Source of the DNA: a virus
Taxonomy: Duplodnaviria; Caudoviricetes
Virus record (IMG/VR): IMGVR_UViG_3300035208_002098
Location: 64,001-128,000 of that record
Strand: one strand, 5' to 3'
Length of the DNA: 64,000 nt
How positions within the stretch are numbered: the stretch's first letter is position 1; the number at the start of each line of letters is the position of its first letter. Both the position numbers and the translations under genes were made by a program. Positions 29,141 through 53,879 of this stretch are shown one piece after another. The notes beneath the pieces are model-generated. The model saw only the letters and a program-made list of their open reading frames with translations. It searched no databases and had not been told where the DNA came from.

Positions 29141-29270
29141 AACTTTTCTTTTTTAGTTTATATTAATAAATATGTTACAATTTTAAAAAATAATCCTCAA
29201 CTGCGTTTAACCTCTACAGCATAGTTTTGTATAACGTGGTATTATTTCAAATACCTTGTGAATTATTTCG

Positions 29271-29343
29271 TGTCCCTAATCGGGTTCGAACCGATGCACA
29301 CAGGCTTTTAGAGGGCCCGGCTCTGCCACTGAGCTATAAGGAC
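29271..29343 (-). tRNA. amber suppressor tRNA (anticodon CTA)
   Basis: GTCCTTA/TAGGGAC acceptor, GCTC/GAGC D arm, loop CTCTAAA, TTCGAAC T loop. Confidence 0.82.
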
Positions 29344-31999: not shown

Positions 32000-32004
32000 T
32001 TTTG

Positions 32005-32076
32005 AGTCGATAATCAGAATCGAACTGACATCCTCAGTTTGGTAAACTGACGCACTAACCGTTGTGCTATATCGAC
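32005..32076 (-). tRNA. tRNA-Gly(ACC)
   Basis: TCAGT-TTACCAA-ACTGA arm, U73. Confidence 0.82.
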
Positions 32077-33857: not shown

Positions 33858-33863
33858 ATATTG

Positions 33864-36247: not shown

Positions 36248-36255
36248 AAGTTAGA

Positions 36256-36390
36256 ACAGGTTTGTCTTTTTGCGTTCTATTGCTCTACCAACTGAGCTAT
36301 ACCCCCAATATTAATATTTGTGGGGGCAATGGGATTCGAACCACATGACCCATAGATTTACCTAGCTTTTTATTTGCTGAATCAAACCTT
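36256..36390 (-). ncRNA. YrlA-like Y RNA (circularly permuted tRNA module)
   Basis: AGGTTTG..CAGCAA...CAAACCT closing stem; T arm precedes a looped acceptor stem and then the D arm. Confidence 0.68.
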
Positions 36391-36897: not shown

Positions 36898-36955
36898 ACA
36901 GGATTGACGTTGTTTCAATTAAAATTTGATTTTGTTTATTGCTGAACCAATCCTT
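36898..36955 (-). ncRNA. short Y-RNA-like CAGCAA stem element
   Basis: AGGATTG..CAGCAA...CAATCCTGT. Confidence 0.5.
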
Positions 36956-36965
36956 TATTCTATTG

Positions 36966-37218: not shown

Positions 37219-37996
37219 CCAATATGTCAATGAAAATTGGTTTTTGTAAAATATCTAGATATTTATAGATATATACAAATTATTATGATACCATTATACA
37301 CTGAAGAAGAATTTAAAACCGCCAAATCATTTGATGAATTATCATGCCAATGTTTAATTTGTGGTAAAACATTTAAACAAAAAAAATACATTGTAAAAAT
37401 GGCTTTAAGTCCAAAATATGAAAGGACTGGTGATTTTTGTTCACTTACATGTCAACAAAAATCTAATATAAAAAAAGATACATTTAAAATATTTAATTGT
37501 TGTAATTGCAATAAAGAAATTATAAAACAATCGTCAGCCAGTAAACGTCATAAAAATACTTTCTGTTCACATTCATGCTCTACAAAATATTTAAATTCAC
37601 ATAAAACTACCGGTACAAGACGTTCTAAATTAGAAATGTATGTTGAAGAACAACTTACATTACTTTACCCTAATCTAGATATTAAATATAATGATAAATC
37701 AGTTATTAATTCTGAATTAGATATCCACATACCATCACTTAACTTAGCATTCGAACTTAATGGTATATTCCATTATGAACCAATATTCGGTGTTAATAAA
37801 TTAGACCAAATACAAACTAATGATATATCTAAATCAAAAGCCTGTATAGATGCAAAGATTGATTTATGTATAATAGATACATCTGGTCATAAATATGTTA
37901 AACCTAAAACTAGTGAAAAATATCTTAATATTATAATTAAAATTATTAACACTAGATTAGCCTAACTTTTTAAAATTTATCCAATATGTCAATGAA
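37219..37996 (+). mobile_element. endonuclease cassette bounded by a 16-bp direct repeat
   Basis: CCAATATGTCAATGAA at 37219-37234 and 37981-37996. Confidence 0.7.
37285..37965 (+). CDS. zinc-ribbon + PD-(D/E)xK homing endonuclease
   Basis: CxxC...FCSxxC repeats, ELDIHIP...AFELNGIFH. Confidence 0.78.
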   Translation: MIPLYTEEEFKTAKSFDELSCQCLICGKTFKQKKYIVKMALSPKYERTGDFCSLTCQQKSNIKKDTFKIFNCCNCNKEIIKQSSASKRHKNTFCSHSCSTKYLNSHKTTGTRRSKLEMYVEEQLTLLYPNLDIKYNDKSVINSELDIHIPSLNLAFELNGIFHYEPIFGVNKLDQIQTNDISKSKACIDAKIDLCIIDTSGHKYVKPKTSEKYLNIIIKIINTRLA

Positions 37997-38042: not shown

Positions 38043-38081
38043 AAAAACAAAAAACCCAATCTACATTTCTGAGGATTGGGT
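38043..38081 (-). terminator. attenuator terminator of tRNA operon A
   Basis: ACCCAATC-loop-GATTGGGT followed by a U-rich tract; 5' arm also complementary to GGATTGGGT (38136-38144) in the leader ORF. Confidence 0.85.
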
Positions 38082-38114
38082 CTTTATATTATTTTGAAAG
38101 AATACTCTAATTCT

Positions 38115-38201
38115 TTACATAAAATTATATAACATACCCAATCCGTTTTGGCCCTCGCCTTTCGGTTGTTTCGTTCCTTGATATGTTGTATACGTTTTCA
38201 T
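38115..38201 (-). CDS. leader peptide MKTYTTYQGTKQPKGEGQNGLGMLYNFM
   Basis: 28-codon ORF between promoter and terminator, A-rich initiation region. Confidence 0.8.
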   Translation of the reverse strand: MKTYTTYQGTKQPKGEGQNGLGMLYNFM

Positions 38202-38231
38202 TGTTTTAATTTTTATATTTTTAATATTCTA

Positions 38232-38314
38232 TTGTTTGTTTATAAATATACTGCAAAGATATGAAAAGTTTCAATACGAGTCAAGTATTTTCGCATTTAT
38301 TTTCAAATTATTTT
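38232..38314 (-). promoter_or_regulatory. tandem promoter of tRNA operon A (83-bp repeat, copy 1)
   Basis: CTTG...TATCTTTG followed by TATATTTATA; 3 mismatches versus 53797-53879. Confidence 0.8.
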
Positions 38315-44815: not shown

Positions 44816-44841
44816 ACATTTGTTTTTAAAATTAATAAAAG

Positions 44842-44925
44842 TGATGGTAATGGGATTCGAACCAACATACGTCATGACCTTCCGATTAAATGTCGGGTGC
44901 TCTAACCAGACTGAGCTATACCATC
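44842..44925 (-). tRNA. atypical tRNA (TTT anticodon, A33, long variable region)
   Basis: canonical D/T arms; CCGA-CATTTAA-TCGG. Confidence 0.55.
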
Positions 44926-45062
44926 ATAAGTTTTTTAGTTGGTCAGGGCCAACATAGAACCGTATTTACCAAACTAAAAGCCCCACATGTGTCGGATGTG
45001 AACCGGTGGTTTATATTCTTGATTATCGAGCATTTAAAACAACCTAAAACTTTCGCTACGTG

Positions 45063-45189
45063 TGGTGATAATAGGATTTGAACCTATGCCATTATAAAGT
45101 TAATAGAAATCTCAATTAACCATTCAATTTCATCTTTATAACCTAACCTAACTATCGTTAGTGCTCTCACCGGACTGAGCTATACCATC
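45063..45189 (-). ncRNA. tRNA-like RNA with tetraloop in place of the anticodon loop and a giant variable arm
   Basis: GCTC/GAGC D arm, CTAAC-GATA-GTTAG, about 55-nt extra arm, T arm. Confidence 0.6.
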
Positions 45190-45381
45190 ATTTTTGCCCT
45201 TAAGTTGAACACATGAGAGTTCAGTTATTGCCTTGGGACTTTTGGCTATTTAATACTAAATAAATACCCTCATGGACTTAACTACATTACCACTACTCTC
45301 TTTATCTCCTACTTATTTTTAGCTCTTTACCTTTGTAGTAGACTCAAGCCTTATTAAAGTGTACGTTCAACGAACAACCTG

Positions 45382-45476
45382 TGATACTAGATGGACTCGA
45401 ACCAACAACCCCTTGACCTACTTTACACATCATGTATTTCGTTGCAAGTCCTCTACCAATTAAGAGATATAGTACC
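45382..45476 (-). ncRNA. tRNA-like RNA with extended anticodon-position hairpin
   Basis: GGTACTA/TAGTATC acceptor, D and T arms, CTTG...CAAG enclosing about 29 nt. Confidence 0.55.
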
Positions 45477-45518
45477 AAATTAATTTTTTATCTATTCAAT
45501 ATTCCATAATGTCTAAAG

Positions 45519-45590
45519 TGGTGATGGGTGGAATTGAACCACCGACACATGGATTTTCAGTCCATTGCTCTACCCCTGAGCTACATCACC
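45519..45590 (-). tRNA. tRNA-Phe(GAA)
   Basis: ATGGA-CTGAAAA-TCCAT, canonical. Confidence 0.9.
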
Positions 45591-45672
45591 ATATTTACCT
45601 CGGTTACAAACCGAGGGTTTTTTCCACGACCAATTATATTATTAATTAACCTTAGAATTTTATTACATCCAG

Positions 45673-45834
45673 TAGAAATGATTGGATTCGAACCAATGAC
45701 CTTCTCACTTATGAGGTGAGTCGTTCTGATTAATATTTCTGACTTCCCTAGAAGTGTTTTACTCTATTAACCCCAAGTTGTGAATCCCATCCCTATTTTA
45801 CTAGAGCCAACTTAGCCACTCAACGTACATTTCT
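45673..45834 (-). tRNA. tRNA(CAT) (Met or Ile2) with about 90-nt D-loop insertion
   Basis: AGAAATG/CATTTCT acceptor, CGTT/AACG D stem, CTCAC-CTCATAA-GTGAG, T arm. Confidence 0.62.
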
Positions 45835-45836
45835 AG

Positions 45837-45912
45837 TGGCGATTTACTGAATCGAACAGCAACGGGTATATCTACCAAAGGATTCATGAGGTCCTCGTTT
45901 CCACATATCGCC
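45837..45912 (-). tRNA. degenerate tRNA(CAT)-like, truncated D arm
   Basis: GGCGAT/ATCGCC acceptor, loop CTCATGA. Confidence 0.4.
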
Positions 45913-46010
45913 AAATTTAACAATCTCTTACTTAAAGACAATCCACGAATTCCTAAACTCGCTTCTAAGCCCCTACTACTTCTTAAATTGTTTAATATTA
46001 AAAAATTAAT

Positions 46011-46135
46011 AACAATATTGATTTTTTTACGTGCTCTACCAACTGAGCTATATTATCAATTACTTGATAATAGGTGGGTTCGAACCACCGACCACGAGCT
46101 TAACAGGCTGATTTTAAATTGCTGAAACAATATTT
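46011..46135 (-). ncRNA. YrlA-like Y RNA (circularly permuted tRNA module)
   Basis: AATATTG..CAGCAA...CAATATT closing stem; T arm, GTAA-capped acceptor stem, then D arm. Confidence 0.68.
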
Positions 46136-46243
46136 TATATTAATTTAGTTCTATATTGAGGACTCGAACCCACATGTACTCCACTAATAGTAATATTAGT
46201 CAGTATTATAGTACCGTGAGATTTTACCCTCACAGCTTAATTA

Positions 46244-46372
46244 ATTAAATGATAGGACTCGAACCTATACTAGACGGGAAACCGGGTTGGGACCTATTAG
46301 GCTGTTCTGATTACCGTGTACATACTATTTTAACCCTCGACCAGCGTGTATTCCAATTCCACCACACTTTAA
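46244..46372 (-). ncRNA. tRNA-like RNA with Leu-type D arm and about 75-nt anticodon-position insert
   Basis: GGTGGAATTGGAATACAC and ATAGGTTCGAGTCCTAT. Confidence 0.5.
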
Positions 46373-46392
46373 TTAATTGTTTTTTTTTGATT

Positions 46393-46673
46393 ACAGATTC
46401 ATGACTAGTAGTAGACGAAACTACTGTATGTCTTTACGGCTGCCGTAAAACGTGCTTTCGGGCACAAGAGTCTATCCTTGCTAACCAACCCATTGTTTAC
46501 TAAACCCATGTGGTAAAACGAATATTTCTATTCTCCCACTGATTATTCAACCACATCGCCACCGGGCACTACATGCTTTTCTTTTACCGTACTAACATGA
46601 GTATATCGCTATCATATTTCTATGCTTCGCTACCTTAGAACCATTATTTTTTTATATTGCAGTAATGAATCTT
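46393..46673 (-). ncRNA. long Y-RNA-like element
   Basis: AGATTCAT..CTGCAA...ATGAATCTGT closing stem around about 240 nt of GC-richer sequence. Confidence 0.4.
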
Positions 46674-47036
46674 TAAATCATTTTAAGTAATTATTACGAG
46701 GTGAAGAAGCATATTCTCTTTGAACTATTACCATTCGAGAACCACACGGGTAGCGTGGTGACCAATATTAAACATCATCAGACATTTATTTATATATAGT
46801 CTATTCCTTAATTCTTTCTAAAGCGTGTACCTTAATTACTTATTTCTTTTAATTAATCACCAATGGATACTTCTTCTCGCTGCGGTCTTGTCTAAACAAA
46901 ACTAGTGGATACTGAAGATATTACACCATGGTATTGATTAATTATATTTTTATTCTGTCAATGAACTTTGTATTTTTAATTACACTGCAAAGATAAATAT
47001 TATATTTGACATGTGCAAGTAAAATCGTATTTATTT

Positions 47037-49144: not shown

Positions 49145-49276
49145 ATCTATAAATATTTAATACAAATATACAAATAATATTTTAATAAACAAAATAAATA
49201 CCATAAAAAAGCTCATTAGAGCTCATATTAAATCTTTTATGAGCTCTAATAGGTGAGAAAATGAGCTTAATTTGTG

Positions 49277-49351
49277 TGGAAGTCATGGGTATCGAACCCA
49301 CCTCACTCTGATTGCAAATCAAAATCGCCTTGCCTTGGTTCATGCACCCCC
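49277..49351 (-). tRNA. tRNA-Ala(TGC), atypical D arm
   Basis: G3:U70, TTTGA-TTTGCAA-TCAGA. Confidence 0.65.
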
Positions 49352-49355
49352 AGTT

Positions 49356-49448
49356 ACAGGTTAGTTATTTTTTGACGGATTTGAACCGTCTAGCATTTGA
49401 GTTTGAATCAATTGTTTTAACCATTTAGTTTTTGCTGAAACTAACCTT
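49356..49448 (-). ncRNA. Y-RNA-like element with T arm
   Basis: AGGTTAGTT.CAGCAA...GACGGTTCAAATCCGTC...AACTAACCTGT. Confidence 0.55.
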
Positions 49449-49520
49449 TAGTTTAATTATTATTTTGTATACATATATGTTTACTTATTTACATTTTTGT
49501 AAACATATGTGATGACTTTG

Positions 49521-49594
49521 TGGAGCCAATGGGACTTGAACCCACAACCTCTTCCGTGCAAGGGAAGTATTCTAGCCAATTGAAATATGACCCC
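49521..49594 (-). tRNA. tRNA-Ala(TGC)
   Basis: G3:U70, CTTCC-CTTGCAC-GGAAG. Confidence 0.88.
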
Positions 49595-49599
49595 ATTAT

Positions 49600-50253
49600 T
49601 TATTTTCTACCTTTTACCCAACCTTCGTTTTCCCAATTAGGTAAATCGTCTTTTTTAATTTTTTTATTGTTATTATCTTTAGTAATCCAACAAGTACCAT
49701 ATTGTGAATTAGTTTCACCAACACCAGTACCACTTTTAATTTTAGACATTTTAACTTTAGTTTCATTTGAATGGATTTTACCTGTCCAATCAGGTATTAC
49801 TATTTTACCATCTTTATGCGTGTTTTTAGCTAAATTAGAAACCCTAAGACGATGTATTTCTCGATAATCACTATCGTTCTTTAATCTATTACCGTGTGCC
49901 TCACCACCTTTTTTACATTGATTCGCTTTATTATTTAAACCATTTTCATTTATAATGTAAAAACTACCACTACCACCGACAACTAAATTCATACATTCTT
50001 TCTTAGCTATTTCACTTAATGTAACTACTTCTTCCTCACGTTTCTTTAATTCATCTCTACTTTCACAGAATTCTAATATTTCTCTATTAAAATTAGTTTT
50101 ACCATGTTTCTTAATTGCTCTACTTAATCTAGTTCCACTACCTAGATAACCATCTTCTAGGTTATTGGTACTATGCATTCCTATATAATATCTACCACTT
50201 AATAGGTTAGTAGTTTTATAGATAAAATGATATTGTTTTTCTTTTCTCGCCAT
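49600..50253 (-). CDS. Seg-like GIY-YIG homing endonuclease
   Basis: FIYKTTN...YYIGMHST...YLGSG. Confidence 0.88.
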   Translation of the reverse strand: MARKEKQYHFIYKTTNLLSGRYYIGMHSTNNLEDGYLGSGTRLSRAIKKHGKTNFNREILEFCESRDELKKREEEVVTLSEIAKKECMNLVVGGSGSFYIINENGLNNKANQCKKGGEAHGNRLKNDSDYREIHRLRVSNLAKNTHKDGKIVIPDWTGKIHSNETKVKMSKIKSGTGVGETNSQYGTCWITKDNNNKKIKKDDLPNWENEGWVKGRK

Positions 50254-50319
50254 AATATTCGTACTTTATTATATAAATATCATGTCATATTCAAAAAGTA
50301 CAAAAACATGACATTTGTG

Positions 50320-50391
50320 CGGCTTATCCGGGACTCGAACCCGGTTCTCCAGCGTGACAAGCTGGAAGGATAACCCATACCCTAATAAGCC
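50320..50391 (-). tRNA. tRNA-Asp(GTC)
   Basis: CCAGC-TTGTCAC-GCTGG, G73. Confidence 0.8.
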
Positions 50392-50396
50392 AAGTG

Positions 50397-50474
50397 CGGA
50401 CTAGAGGGAATTCGAATCCCTGTTTTAGAGGAGTGACAGTCCAATTCTCACACGCCAGTTGAGCACCCTAGTCC
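50397..50474 (-). tRNA. tRNA-Asp(GTC), atypical
   Basis: GGA-CTGTCAC-TCC, G73. Confidence 0.62.
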
Positions 50475-50475
50475 A

Positions 50476-51075
50476 TTATTTAATATTTTTACCACCATGT
50501 GTATCCAATGTTGCATTACAATTCGGACATACAATACGTAAATTTTCTATTCTATTATCATCATTAATACCATTTATATGGTCTAATATTAATGACATAT
50601 GTTTACCATCCCATTCTTCACCTTGACCACATAATTCACATTTACGTTCTTTTAAACCTTCTTTATATAATCTTTCTTTAAGGTTGGTAGTATAAATATA
50701 TGTAGAATTTTCAACTAATATTTCACTTAAATTTTTTTTAGCTGACGGTGTTTTCATACCATTCCTAAAATGAGAAATATCACATTTATATATTTTTATA
50801 TATTTTTTAATTGTTTGTCTATTACCCATTGTTGTAGATAGTTTTAAATTTCTACAAACATCTACATAATTAATAGAGTTTTTAATAATTTCAGTGAAAT
50901 ATAATTCTTCATATCTTTTATTAGGTAATCGTTTAATACCAAGTTTATCTATTTTTTGTTTAACATTTTTAATGTTTCTACCAGATAATAGTTCAAAGCA
51001 GTATTTACAACCATATTCTGGGTAATTGTTATATAAAATATCAATCTCATCCTTAGTCCATAATTTTCCAACCAT
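50476..51075 (-). CDS. HNH homing endonuclease
   Basis: CELC...LDHING...NLRIVCPNC. Confidence 0.88.
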   Translation of the reverse strand: MVGKLWTKDEIDILYNNYPEYGCKYCFELLSGRNIKNVKQKIDKLGIKRLPNKRYEELYFTEIIKNSINYVDVCRNLKLSTTMGNRQTIKKYIKIYKCDISHFRNGMKTPSAKKNLSEILVENSTYIYTTNLKERLYKEGLKERKCELCGQGEEWDGKHMSLILDHINGINDDNRIENLRIVCPNCNATLDTHGGKNIK

Positions 51076-51099
51076 ATATATTTATTTTTTAATTATTTG

Positions 51100-51171
51100 T
51101 GCCTAGAGTTGGAATTGAACCAACGACACCCGGCTCTTCAAACCGGTGCTCTACCCCTGAGCTACCTAGGC
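51100..51171 (-). tRNA. tRNA-Phe(GAA)
   Basis: CCGGT-TTGAAGA-GCCGG. Confidence 0.88.
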
Positions 51172-51259
51172 TTTTTAAGGTTTTACCCTTATATTTTAAT
51201 TAATTTATAAGGTTATAAGCTTATAAACATACTTTATAAGCCTTTAAGCTTATATTTTG

Positions 51260-51290
51260 TGGAACCAATCGGAGTTGACCCGATGTCTAA
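51260..51290 (-). pseudogene. 3' remnant of a tRNA-Ala or tmRNA
   Basis: GAC-ATCGG-GTCAACT-CCGAT-TGGTTCC-A abutting the HNH stop; no 5' half seen. Confidence 0.45.
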
Positions 51291-51788
51291 CTAATGATTT
51301 CTTATATACTCTAATAACTTTTCATCATTATGTTTATTATGTTCCTCACTATGACAATTACCACATAATAATATACACTTATCTAATTCATTTTTTAACA
51401 CATCCCAACTTTTATTAGATGAACTAGAAATTGTGAATTCTTTTTCATTTTGTGATAAATGATGAAATTGTAGTCCTGATAAAGATTTATTATACCCACA
51501 TATTTGACAACAACCACCTTTATAGTCAATTGCTCTTACTTTAAATTTATATCTTCTCACCCTAATAGCACATGCACCACACGTTGACCGGTTTTTAAAA
51601 TTATTTTCAATTTCATGCCCACAAATAACACAATTATAATTTTTTACTTTTTCATTAGACTTAGTTAAACCTAATTTTTTTAATAATCTACCAACTGTTG
51701 TATCGTGACAATTTAAAATTGCACCTATTTTAACATTAGATAAACCACTTTCATACAGCCTTATTAACTCTTTTTCATCAACACCCAT
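51291..51788 (-). CDS. HNH homing endonuclease
   Basis: KGGCCQICGY...LQFHH...LCGNCHSEEH. Confidence 0.88.
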   Translation of the reverse strand: MGVDEKELIRLYESGLSNVKIGAILNCHDTTVGRLLKKLGLTKSNEKVKNYNCVICGHEIENNFKNRSTCGACAIRVRRYKFKVRAIDYKGGCCQICGYNKSLSGLQFHHLSQNEKEFTISSSSNKSWDVLKNELDKCILLCGNCHSEEHNKHNDEKLLEYIRNH

Positions 51789-51820
51789 ATTTTTATATTT
51801 AATAATTTAATTATATTTTG

Positions 51821-51901
51821 TACTCTCGATGAGATTTGAACTCACACATCTTTCGATACCGGGTTTTGAATCCAGCTTGTCTACCGTTCCAGCACGAGAG
51901 C
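51821..51901 (-). tRNA. tRNA-Leu(CAA)
   Basis: loop TTCAAAA, class II arm, A73. Confidence 0.85.
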
Positions 51902-52660: not shown

Positions 52661-52723
52661 GATATTTGTACTTTATTATAAATATCTAGTATTTACCAAA
52701 AAGTACAAAAACATGACATCGGG

Positions 52724-52806
52724 TGACCAAGGTGAGAGTCGAACTCACACGTCCTTTCAGACAGTAGCTTCTTAGACTACCGGGTCTGCCATTCCCCCAC
52801 TCGGCC
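52724..52806 (-). tRNA. tRNA-Leu(AAG)
   Basis: GTAGT-CTAAGAA-GCTAC, class II arm. Confidence 0.82.
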
Positions 52807-52814
52807 AATAAAAG

Positions 52815-52886
52815 CGGTCCGGAAGGGACTCGAACCCTCAACCATCTCGCAGACAACGAGTTATACCACCATTGTACTACCGGACC
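52815..52886 (-). tRNA. tRNA-Asp(GTC)
   Basis: CTCG-TTGTCTG-CGAG, G73. Confidence 0.72.
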
Positions 52887-53024
52887 ATTAATAAAAGTTT
52901 CTTATATCATCACATTGGCCAGATGTGACCTTCCTATCAATATATGTTTGTCGACCAACATAAATAATAAGTGATTTATCTCCCTCACTCACGGAGGGCC
53001 TTACATCATAAAGATTCTTTTCTG

Positions 53025-53107
53025 TGACCTCAATGGGAGTCGAACCCATACGCTCTTAGAGCATTGCCTTTTAAGGACAACGTGTCTACCAATTCCACCA
53101 TGAGGCC
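53025..53107 (-). tRNA. tRNA-Leu(TAA)
   Basis: TTGTC-CTTAAAA-GGCAA. Confidence 0.88.
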
Positions 53108-53112
53108 ATTTG

Positions 53113-53187
53113 CAGTATAGGTAGGATTTGAACCTACAACCATAGGAAGGCCGTTCCCGTGCTCACCCATCTTCTCGCTTCTATACT
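53113..53187 (-). tRNA. atypical tRNA-like RNA, anticodon undetermined
   Basis: AGTATAG/CTATACT acceptor and T arm; 5-nt loop CGGCC. Confidence 0.45.
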
Positions 53188-53253
53188 AACACCTAAATCT
53201 TATTACGTAATTATATAAATAGGTGTGGTGATTACCTTCAAAGTAACCATTTG

Positions 53254-53335
53254 TCCCCCAAGAGAGATTCGAACTCTCACGCATTTTCAGCCACGGCTTC
53301 TAAGACCGCTGTGTCTACCGTTCCACCATCGGGGG
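53254..53335 (-). tRNA. tRNA-Leu(TAG)
   Basis: GCGGT-CTTAGAA-GCCGT. Confidence 0.88.
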
Positions 53336-53367
53336 ATATTACCAATATTTCAATGAACTAAATCCAG

Positions 53368-53452
53368 TACGACCTGTAGGATTCGAACCTACGTTATACT
53401 ATTCGCCTCTACTGTGTAAAAGTAGTGCTCTTACCAACTGAGCTAAGGTCGC
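53368..53452 (-). tRNA. tRNA-Val(TAC) with long variable region
   Basis: CTACT-TTTACAC-AGTAG. Confidence 0.78.
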
Positions 53453-53459
53453 ATTTTTG

Positions 53460-53547
53460 AGTACCCGGTCAGATTTGAACTGACGATGAAGCTTTCGCTT
53501 TGGTGGTTTTGCAGACCACCCCCTTCGACCACTCGGAGCACAGATAC
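53460..53547 (-). tRNA. tRNA-Cys(GCA) with long variable arm
   Basis: GTGGT-CTGCAAA-ACCAC, U73, arm AAGCGAAAGCTT. Confidence 0.8.
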
Positions 53548-53591: not shown

Positions 53592-53627
53592 AAAAAAAAA
53601 GTCCAATTCTTTTGTAGAACCGGACTT
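53592..53627 (-). terminator. attenuator terminator of tRNA operon B
   Basis: AAGTCCGGTTCT-ACAAA-AGAATTGGACTT then U tract; 5' arm also pairs with AGAGGTCGGACT (about 53686-53697) in the leader ORF. Confidence 0.85.
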
Positions 53628-53662
53628 AGTTTTTTATGTTTTTAAAAATTTGTTTTACCAAA

Positions 53663-53770
53663 TTATTTATATAACTTATTAACGTAGTCCGACCTCTTTA
53701 ACGCATCAAATGCATCAAATAAGACTGCTGTACAATCTAGAAGGGCTAATATGTTAAAAGTTGTTATCAT
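53663..53770 (-). CDS. leader peptide MITTFNILALLDCTAVLFDAFDALKRSDYVNKLYK
   Basis: 35-codon ORF between promoter and terminator. Confidence 0.8.
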   Translation of the reverse strand: MITTFNILALLDCTAVLFDAFDALKRSDYVNKLYK

Positions 53771-53796
53771 TTTTATATTTTTTGTTTTATTACTAC

Positions 53797-53879
53797 TTGT
53801 TTGTTTATAAATATACTGCAAATATACGAAAAGTTTCAATACGAGTCAAGTATTTTCGCATTTATTTTTAAATTATTTT
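53797..53879 (-). promoter_or_regulatory. tandem promoter of tRNA operon B (83-bp repeat, copy 2)
   Basis: near-identical to 38232-38314. Confidence 0.8.

Follow-up and report, generated by a model that had tools for sequence, protein, structure and literature searches.

Introduction

Classical attenuators such as trpL, hisL and pheL consist of a short leader ORF with regulatory codons and of transcript regions I to IV, whose II:III and III:IV helices are mutually exclusive, and slow decoding of the leader results in read-through (PMC1183508). The same layout is found in the locus described here. Multivalent attenuators are exemplified by the thrL and ilvGMEDA leaders. In E. coli, the leader peptide of pheM-pheST senses the supply of charged tRNA and exerts negative feedback on a component of the translation apparatus. 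T-box riboswitches likewise let the status of a tRNA set the choice between terminator and antiterminator. The trn operon of Anabaena, which is controlled by TrcR, is likewise a mobile tRNA array with homing endonucleases and stays silent until translational stress (PMC8421152, PMC10272220).

Why phages carry large tRNA sets has been an open question for more than 50 years (PMC10264068). Phage tRNAs have been found to counter the depletion of host tRNAs, which is the likely purpose of the arrays, and no sensing or regulation was described in that work (PMC10264068). Here we analyze leader region B, which precedes a phage tRNA operon in a window of 64,000 nucleotides (G000:C1:64001-128000; positions refer to this window unless given as genome positions). 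The record is a linear virus of 248,412 bp with 27.7% GC and is about 70% complete, and relatives with complete records measure about 290-370 kb. Region B is very likely a trp-type ribosome-mediated transcription attenuator that switches on the matching tRNA block upon slow decoding, although translation, direction of control and purpose are inferred and no RNA or ribosome data are available.

Results

Anatomy of leader region B

An earlier note, made from the sequence alone, had described a promoter, an ORF, a pairing segment and a terminator in region B, and a check of the sequence confirmed all four, positions included. All lie on the minus strand. The 83-bp promoter repeat (53797-53879) contains TTG at 53849 and a TAnnTTTG -7 box at 53826-53819, a combination which we take to be of the Bacteroidota primary-sigma type; a Bacteroidota host is inferred from this promoter type and not shown. 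A ATATTTATA motif, common before phage genes, lies 3' of the -7 box at 53814. The claim that region B uses the same 83-bp promoter as its sister unit also held, as the repeat is 96% identical to 38232-38314, and the genome holds three near-identical copies of it.

The leader ORF of 35 codons (53770-53663) is preceded by an A-rich region without a Shine-Dalgarno sequence. Segment 1, the putative protector strand (53743-53759, codons 4-10), includes the conserved Asn-Ile codons and is predicted to pair with the antiterminator region when the ribosome is absent. It overlaps the sensor core (53699-53749, codons 8-24), in which 16 of 17 codons specify L, A, D, C, V or F, and the core is followed by segment 2, the antiterminator strand (53686-53697, codons 25-29). 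Segment 2 is complementary to the 5' arm of the terminator, with a pairing energy of about -12 kcal/mol. The intrinsic terminator (53592-53627) is formed by a 5' arm (53627-53616) and a 3' arm (53610-53599), giving a 12-bp stem (53627-53599) with nine T (T tract 53600-53592). The entire leader region folds with z = -3.1. The leader has homologues in P0121 (79%) and L148-L152, and its peptide has no Pfam match.

The tRNA operon B

The list of downstream tRNAs in the earlier note held as well: Cys, Val, Leu(TAG, TAA, AAG, CAA), three Asp, Phe and two Ala. The first block (52721-53547, minus) comprises Cys(GCA), Val(TAC), Leu(TAG), an atypical tRNA-like gene, Leu(TAA), Asp(GTC) and Leu(AAG), while the rest of the operon (49277-51901, minus) carries Leu(CAA), Phe(GAA), two Asp and two Ala(TGC), interleaved with GIY-YIG/HNH endonuclease ORFs. 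The second Ala tRNA (49277-49349) did not reach the Rfam cut-off and was identified by eye. On reading, two calls were rejected in favor of others: Glu in operon B of L149 in favor of Phe, and the ARAGORN call of Trp at 33863 in favor of Lys(TTT). The atypical gene (53113-53187, minus) lies just under the Rfam cut-off at 28.7 bits, and GGC in its putative anticodon loop is kept in L149; it might be an Ala(GGC) tRNA, which would decode the GCC codon of leader B.

A putative boxA-like element (53348-53358, minus) lies near the operon start and recurs near the starts of operons A and C and of an unattenuated cluster. A terminator-like hairpin (49209-49224, minus) closes the operon, and no further host-type promoter was found within it from 53849 to 49192. 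However, ATATTTATA motifs precede internal endonuclease genes (52685, 50280), and these could drive the distal tRNAs independently of leader B.

Codon match between leaders and operons

The count of 16 matches in 17 codons is correct, but that core (codons 8-24) had been picked post hoc. We therefore counted every codon from codon 2 up to the computed antiterminator (codons 2-24). Leader B matched its own operon in 17/23 codons and each sister operon in 3/23; the former has a binomial p of 1.3e-5 against genome amino-acid frequencies, and six codons remain outside the set. This codon matching is shown directly. Sister attenuator A (38043-38314, minus) consists of the promoter, a 28-codon leader (38201-38115) and a terminator, precedes the Pro/Gln/Tyr/Glu/Lys/Gly/Thr operon, and matches it in 17/18 codons versus 1 and 0 for the other two operons.

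The earlier note had predicted a further operon with a matching leader for Arg, Ser, His, Ile, Asn, Met and Trp. The prediction held for all of these except Met. A BLAST search with the promoter located a third copy outside the window (genome 150592-150674), which is followed by a 30-codon ORF, leader C. Codons 2-21 of leader C specify R, N, I, H, S or W without exception (20/20, versus 0 and 0 for the sister operons), and on its 3' side come a terminator and, further on, tRNAs for Asn, Trp, Ser, His, Ile and Arg. Leaders A, B and C jointly cover 19 amino acids without overlap. The three-gene Met tRNA cluster has a weaker promoter copy without leader or terminator; it probably holds the initiator tRNA, which a leader switch of this kind cannot sense. 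The amino-acid sets had been claimed not to overlap between operons, and this held only among the three attenuated ones, since extra Phe and Lys tRNAs occur in an unattenuated cluster (44841-46400).

A chance composition in AT-rich DNA, combined with a core chosen post hoc, was considered as an explanation. In its favor, the 16/17 count had left out codons 2-7, and short ORFs of low complexity are frequent at 28% GC. Against it stand the p value of the objectively defined core of B, the out-of-window prediction met in 20/20 codons and a layout common to 77 leaders from related phages. This explanation is already refuted and can be all but excluded.

At the codon level the evidence is weaker. 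The Leu codons TTA, CTT and CTA do match anticodons TAA, AAG and TAG as had been claimed, but this is not significant alone: TTA makes up 74% of the phage Leu codons, and TTG is absent from leader B despite the encoded Leu(CAA). Leader B has 14 distinct codons versus 13.8 expected, and its codon-level match does not exceed chance, so a codon-level proof from leader B alone was rejected. Across the relatives, distinct codons exceeded expectation in 72/77 leaders. The cores are rich in codons that are rare in the phage (GTC, GTG, ACG, CCG, TCG, GGC, GAG), with a GC3 of 0.31 versus 0.11 for the phage. Such rare and diverse codons fit a sampling of separate isoacceptors, but RNA structure could also drive the pattern.

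Leader-operon co-variation across related phages

Related phage contigs and their tRNA clusters were gathered via the CCA-adding enzyme that adjoins operon C; an alignment query retrieved the relatives, whereas a single-protein query gave no matches. One uniform script then yielded 77 distinct leaders, all of which have a terminator and tRNA genes on their 3' side. For the 73 leaders with at least three isotypes, the mean match to the own operon was 0.70, as compared with 0.31 +/- 0.03 when pairings were permuted, where the highest of 10,000 values was 0.42. When leaders were pooled by type, the set of the type accounted for 86-99% of their core codons and for 97-98% of the tRNA genes in their operons. 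The permutation test is inflated by relatedness, as the genomes are not independent, and the operons that have been re-partitioned provide the stronger evidence.

Close homologues of the fused leader B (L148-L152) precede the same C/V/L/F/D/A operon. In most relatives operon B is split in two: the Cys, Val and Leu genes are preceded by a C/V/L leader, and the Phe, Glu, Asp and Ala genes by a F/E/D/A leader of their own; in these split relatives there is neither a Glu codon in the core of leader A nor a Glu tRNA in operon A. G000 and G005 have the fused B, and Glu is present in both leader A and operon A. The two genomes cluster in the CCA tree with support of 90/88, below the starred threshold, so the fusion of B was probably one event. 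The two-way partition of G019, a genome nested among the split phages, is a different one, and the leaders of G019 match their own operons in 21/26 and 23/23 codons (cross matches 5/26 and 2/23). Yet another partition is present in G001, with a leader match of 15/20. The co-variation of leader and operon is thus shown.

A 35-gene array of nearly all isotypes in G002 is preceded by one ORF of some 45 codons, very mixed in amino acids, and by a weak hairpin (L026:6260-6410); this is possibly a one-leader version of the design.

Elsewhere, exact promoter patterns had no match in viral_contigs, and BLAST with region B and leader C found no cultured-phage match. A leader-C profile scan of 185,579 prokaryotic genomes gave one match, a 3-kb phage-like contig in a metagenome bin; the scan was limited to a single pattern and a single leader family and is no proof that hosts lack such leaders.

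Predicted RNA switch and stall geometry

Pairing was evaluated by comparing own-versus-other duplex energies instead of consensus folding; RNAalifold on a plain MAFFT alignment gave no consensus structure, the arms being out of register. In 73/77 cases, pairing of the antiterminator is stronger with the own terminator arm than with the arms of same-type leaders, and members of the B family show joint changes in the ORF segment and in both terminator arms. Complementarity beyond synonymous recoding was moderate for B (p = 0.035) and not significant for C (p = 0.10).

The layout is also constrained in distance. Of the 77 leaders, 63 have an antiterminator that begins at codon 19-23 (in leader B it begins at codon 25), and 46-60 nt separate the stop codon from the T tract in 90% of the 77 leaders. 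Counted relative to the antiterminator, the fraction of matching codons is 0.77-0.93 from -13 to -4 codons (0.85-0.89 at -5/-4) and then drops to 0.70, 0.48 and 0.33 at -3, -2 and -1. The availability of the antiterminator under a ribosome footprint, a folding prediction, is 0.76 at -4 and then 0.54, 0.20 and 0.03. As the matching fraction and the predicted availability fall together, the sensing codons end where a stall stops being useful.

Helices and footprint geometry are model predictions throughout. Before the terminator is made, segment 2 is predicted to form a 1:2 helix with codons 4-10, which exceeded codon-order shuffles in 69/77 leaders. A preference for the own partner in this helix was seen in C, A and C/V/L leaders and not in F/E/D/A leaders (5/12). 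Such a protector helix might explain the conserved off-set Asn-Ile codons at the start of B. In equilibrium folding the terminator of B prevails wherever the ribosome is placed (P 0.89-0.98), and the B antiterminator is present only as long as the 3' arm has not been transcribed (P 0.5-0.8). Hence control in B must be kinetic, that is, co-transcriptional.

Four features of a ribosome-mediated attenuator are present: leader codons matched to the operon, an intrinsic terminator, an exclusive 2:3 helix and a codon placement that leaves segment 2 free. Support for the 1:2 protector helix is mixed, and translation of the leader is inferred. The attenuator interpretation of the earlier note is supported by the third leader, by the co-variation of leader with operon and of antiterminator with terminator, and by the stall geometry.

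Functional small peptides followed by an ordinary constitutive terminator, with the tRNAs expressed by leak-through or from other promoters, would be another explanation. Leader B and the C/V/L leaders are indeed hydrophobic, B resembles a signal or membrane peptide, its core is conserved at the protein level, and internal phage promoters are possible in the operon. However, the A, C and F/E/D/A leaders are not hydrophobic, and the composition follows the downstream tRNAs in every partition. Conservation stops at the antiterminator, tails and stop positions vary, and no Pfam match exists. Moreover, the ORF bases that co-vary with the terminator would remain unexplained. We rejected this explanation as very unlikely.

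Other RNA elements and genes nearby

Several further observations were made around these units. A 242-aa ORF on the opposite strand (37237-37965, plus) is inserted between terminator A and the first tRNA, and similar insertions occur in tRNA operons of L024 and G005. The fourth cluster (44841-47018, minus) has a promoter and a boxA-like site without a leader, and contains Phe, Lys and degenerate tRNA-like genes together with long unexplained non-coding stretches. Near operon C (genome 140943-152351 and 162500-162870, L001) lie genes for a CCA-adding enzyme, a 2'-phosphotransferase (PTS_2-RNA in relatives), a likely RNA ligase and a tmRNA. Directly 3' of an endonuclease-like ORF in operon B, an orphan 3' half of a tRNA- or tmRNA-like gene (T arm and acceptor strand; 51246-51310, minus) was noticed.

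tRNA-like RNAs inside a closing stem with a shared TTCAGCAA motif occur at 36250-36385, 46015-46140, 49352-49450 and 36900-36960 (minus). Two of them look circularly permuted, the acceptor stem being closed by a loop, and the copy at 49352-49450 folds with z = -3.9. Such permuted tRNA-like RNAs resemble bacterial Y RNAs, and a DUF2828/DUF7788 protein (genome 168471-169904) may be their partner. Two tRNAs have A34 anticodons, Leu(AAG) at 52721-52807 and Gly(ACC) at 32004-32076, which is unusual in bacteria and recurs in relatives. A tRNA with a CTA anticodon (amber suppressor-like; 29270-29343, minus) is also present in many relatives, and the next gene start after it has an early in-frame TAG. 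At genome position G000:C1 27200-27660 (L004), an array of a 36-nt CRISPR-like repeat is located behind a promoter of the same type and upstream of a 472-aa ORF.

A similar arrangement in the cultured phage phiCbK

The Caulobacter phage phiCbK has two matching leaders, at record positions 49540 and 51341. One is a 45-codon ORF, annotated as hypothetical gp335, with 41/44 codons matching its Pro/Thr/Lys/Leu/His/Ala/Ser block; the other is an unannotated ORF of 32 codons, with 13/16 codons matching its Tyr/Phe/Val/Ile/Gln/Asn/Arg block. Both precede an annotated terminator. The design varies within phiCbK, as the best pairing segment of the 45-codon leader lies 3' of its stop codon and the match of a third small ORF is poor (1/8). 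The phiCbK genome paper does not mention attenuation.

Discussion

We propose that the host RNA polymerase starts at the 83-bp promoter and that a host ribosome translates the leader. Upon fast decoding of the Leu, Ala, Asp, Cys, Val and Phe codons, the ribosome would cover segment 2, the terminator would form, and no tRNAs would be made. When a cognate charged tRNA is scarce, the ribosome would stall in codons ~8-21, the 1:2 helix would be melted and segment 2 set free. The free segment 2 would then capture the 5' arm of the terminator before synthesis of the 3' arm, and the polymerase would enter the matching tRNA genes. The newly made tRNA would restore decoding and close the loop. With 19 amino acids divided among units A, B and C, only the block containing the short tRNA would be switched on. 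The label "tRNA-sensing" used in the earlier note has to be taken as sensing of the decoding rate, by which the switch cannot separate tRNA loss from amino-acid starvation.

The same switch could instead serve as a general translation-stress or timing device, in which any slowdown opens all operons and codon matching merely fine-tunes. All three units have one common promoter, and the tRNA operon of Anabaena is induced by general translational stress (PMC10272220). In equilibrium folds of the unfinished transcript, the 2:3 helix remains possible even when no ribosome is present (0.52-0.89, three leaders). However, the predicted 1:2 helix hides segment 2 when the ribosome is absent, and a stress device would not need leaders that are rewritten whenever tRNA genes move between operons. 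We therefore regard the stress device as unlikely and retain the block-specific attenuator.

As to the purpose of this attenuator, which is inferred, the replacement of host tRNAs lost or inactivated in infection is the most plausible, because more tRNA does not cure amino-acid starvation. A bolder reading, towards which we incline by a narrow margin, is that of a code-wide phage tRNA homeostat. Its leaders would sample the codons of their own block down to isoacceptors, detect a host tRNA destroyed by a defence nuclease or toxin, replace only that class, and be rewritten when tRNA genes change operon.

A sensor tied to the decoding speed of the codons that precisely these tRNAs read implies on-demand tRNA replacement and not a constitutive codon-bias supplement. 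It would extend attenuation to tRNA genes and offer a read-out of which tRNAs fail during infection, and the design can be tested in the cultured phage phiCbK. No report of leader-peptide attenuation of tRNA genes was found in the literature searched, from which subscription journals were mostly missing. With no published case found, tRNA genes as the output of an attenuator appear to be new, while the attenuator mechanism itself is known.

Membership in the named leader families (trpL, hisL, thrL, leuL, ilvL, pheL/pheM) was rejected, because the downstream genes are tRNAs and the Rfam scores are far below cut-off; none of the Rfam leader families gave a sequence match (Thr_leader 19.8 bits versus a cut-off of 55). 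A T-box was rejected likewise, as neither the gathering score nor a limit of E up to 10 gave a match. In T-boxes, uncharged tRNA is bound without mediation through a specifier loop and no ORF is needed, whereas the phage units use a leader ORF. The Anabaena trn operon, the closest regulated tRNA array found, is a single unit controlled at initiation by a protein repressor (PMC10272220), with no attenuation or leader mentioned (PMC8421152), and the leader-terminator layout of the phage needs no repressor of the TrcR type. Compared with E. coli pheM-pheST, which serves one synthetase and one amino acid, the product of the phage units is the tRNA itself. Finally, the phage units differ from the classical attenuators in that their output is tRNA genes and not enzymes, one leader samples 6-7 amino acids, and several phage-borne leaders partition nearly the whole code.
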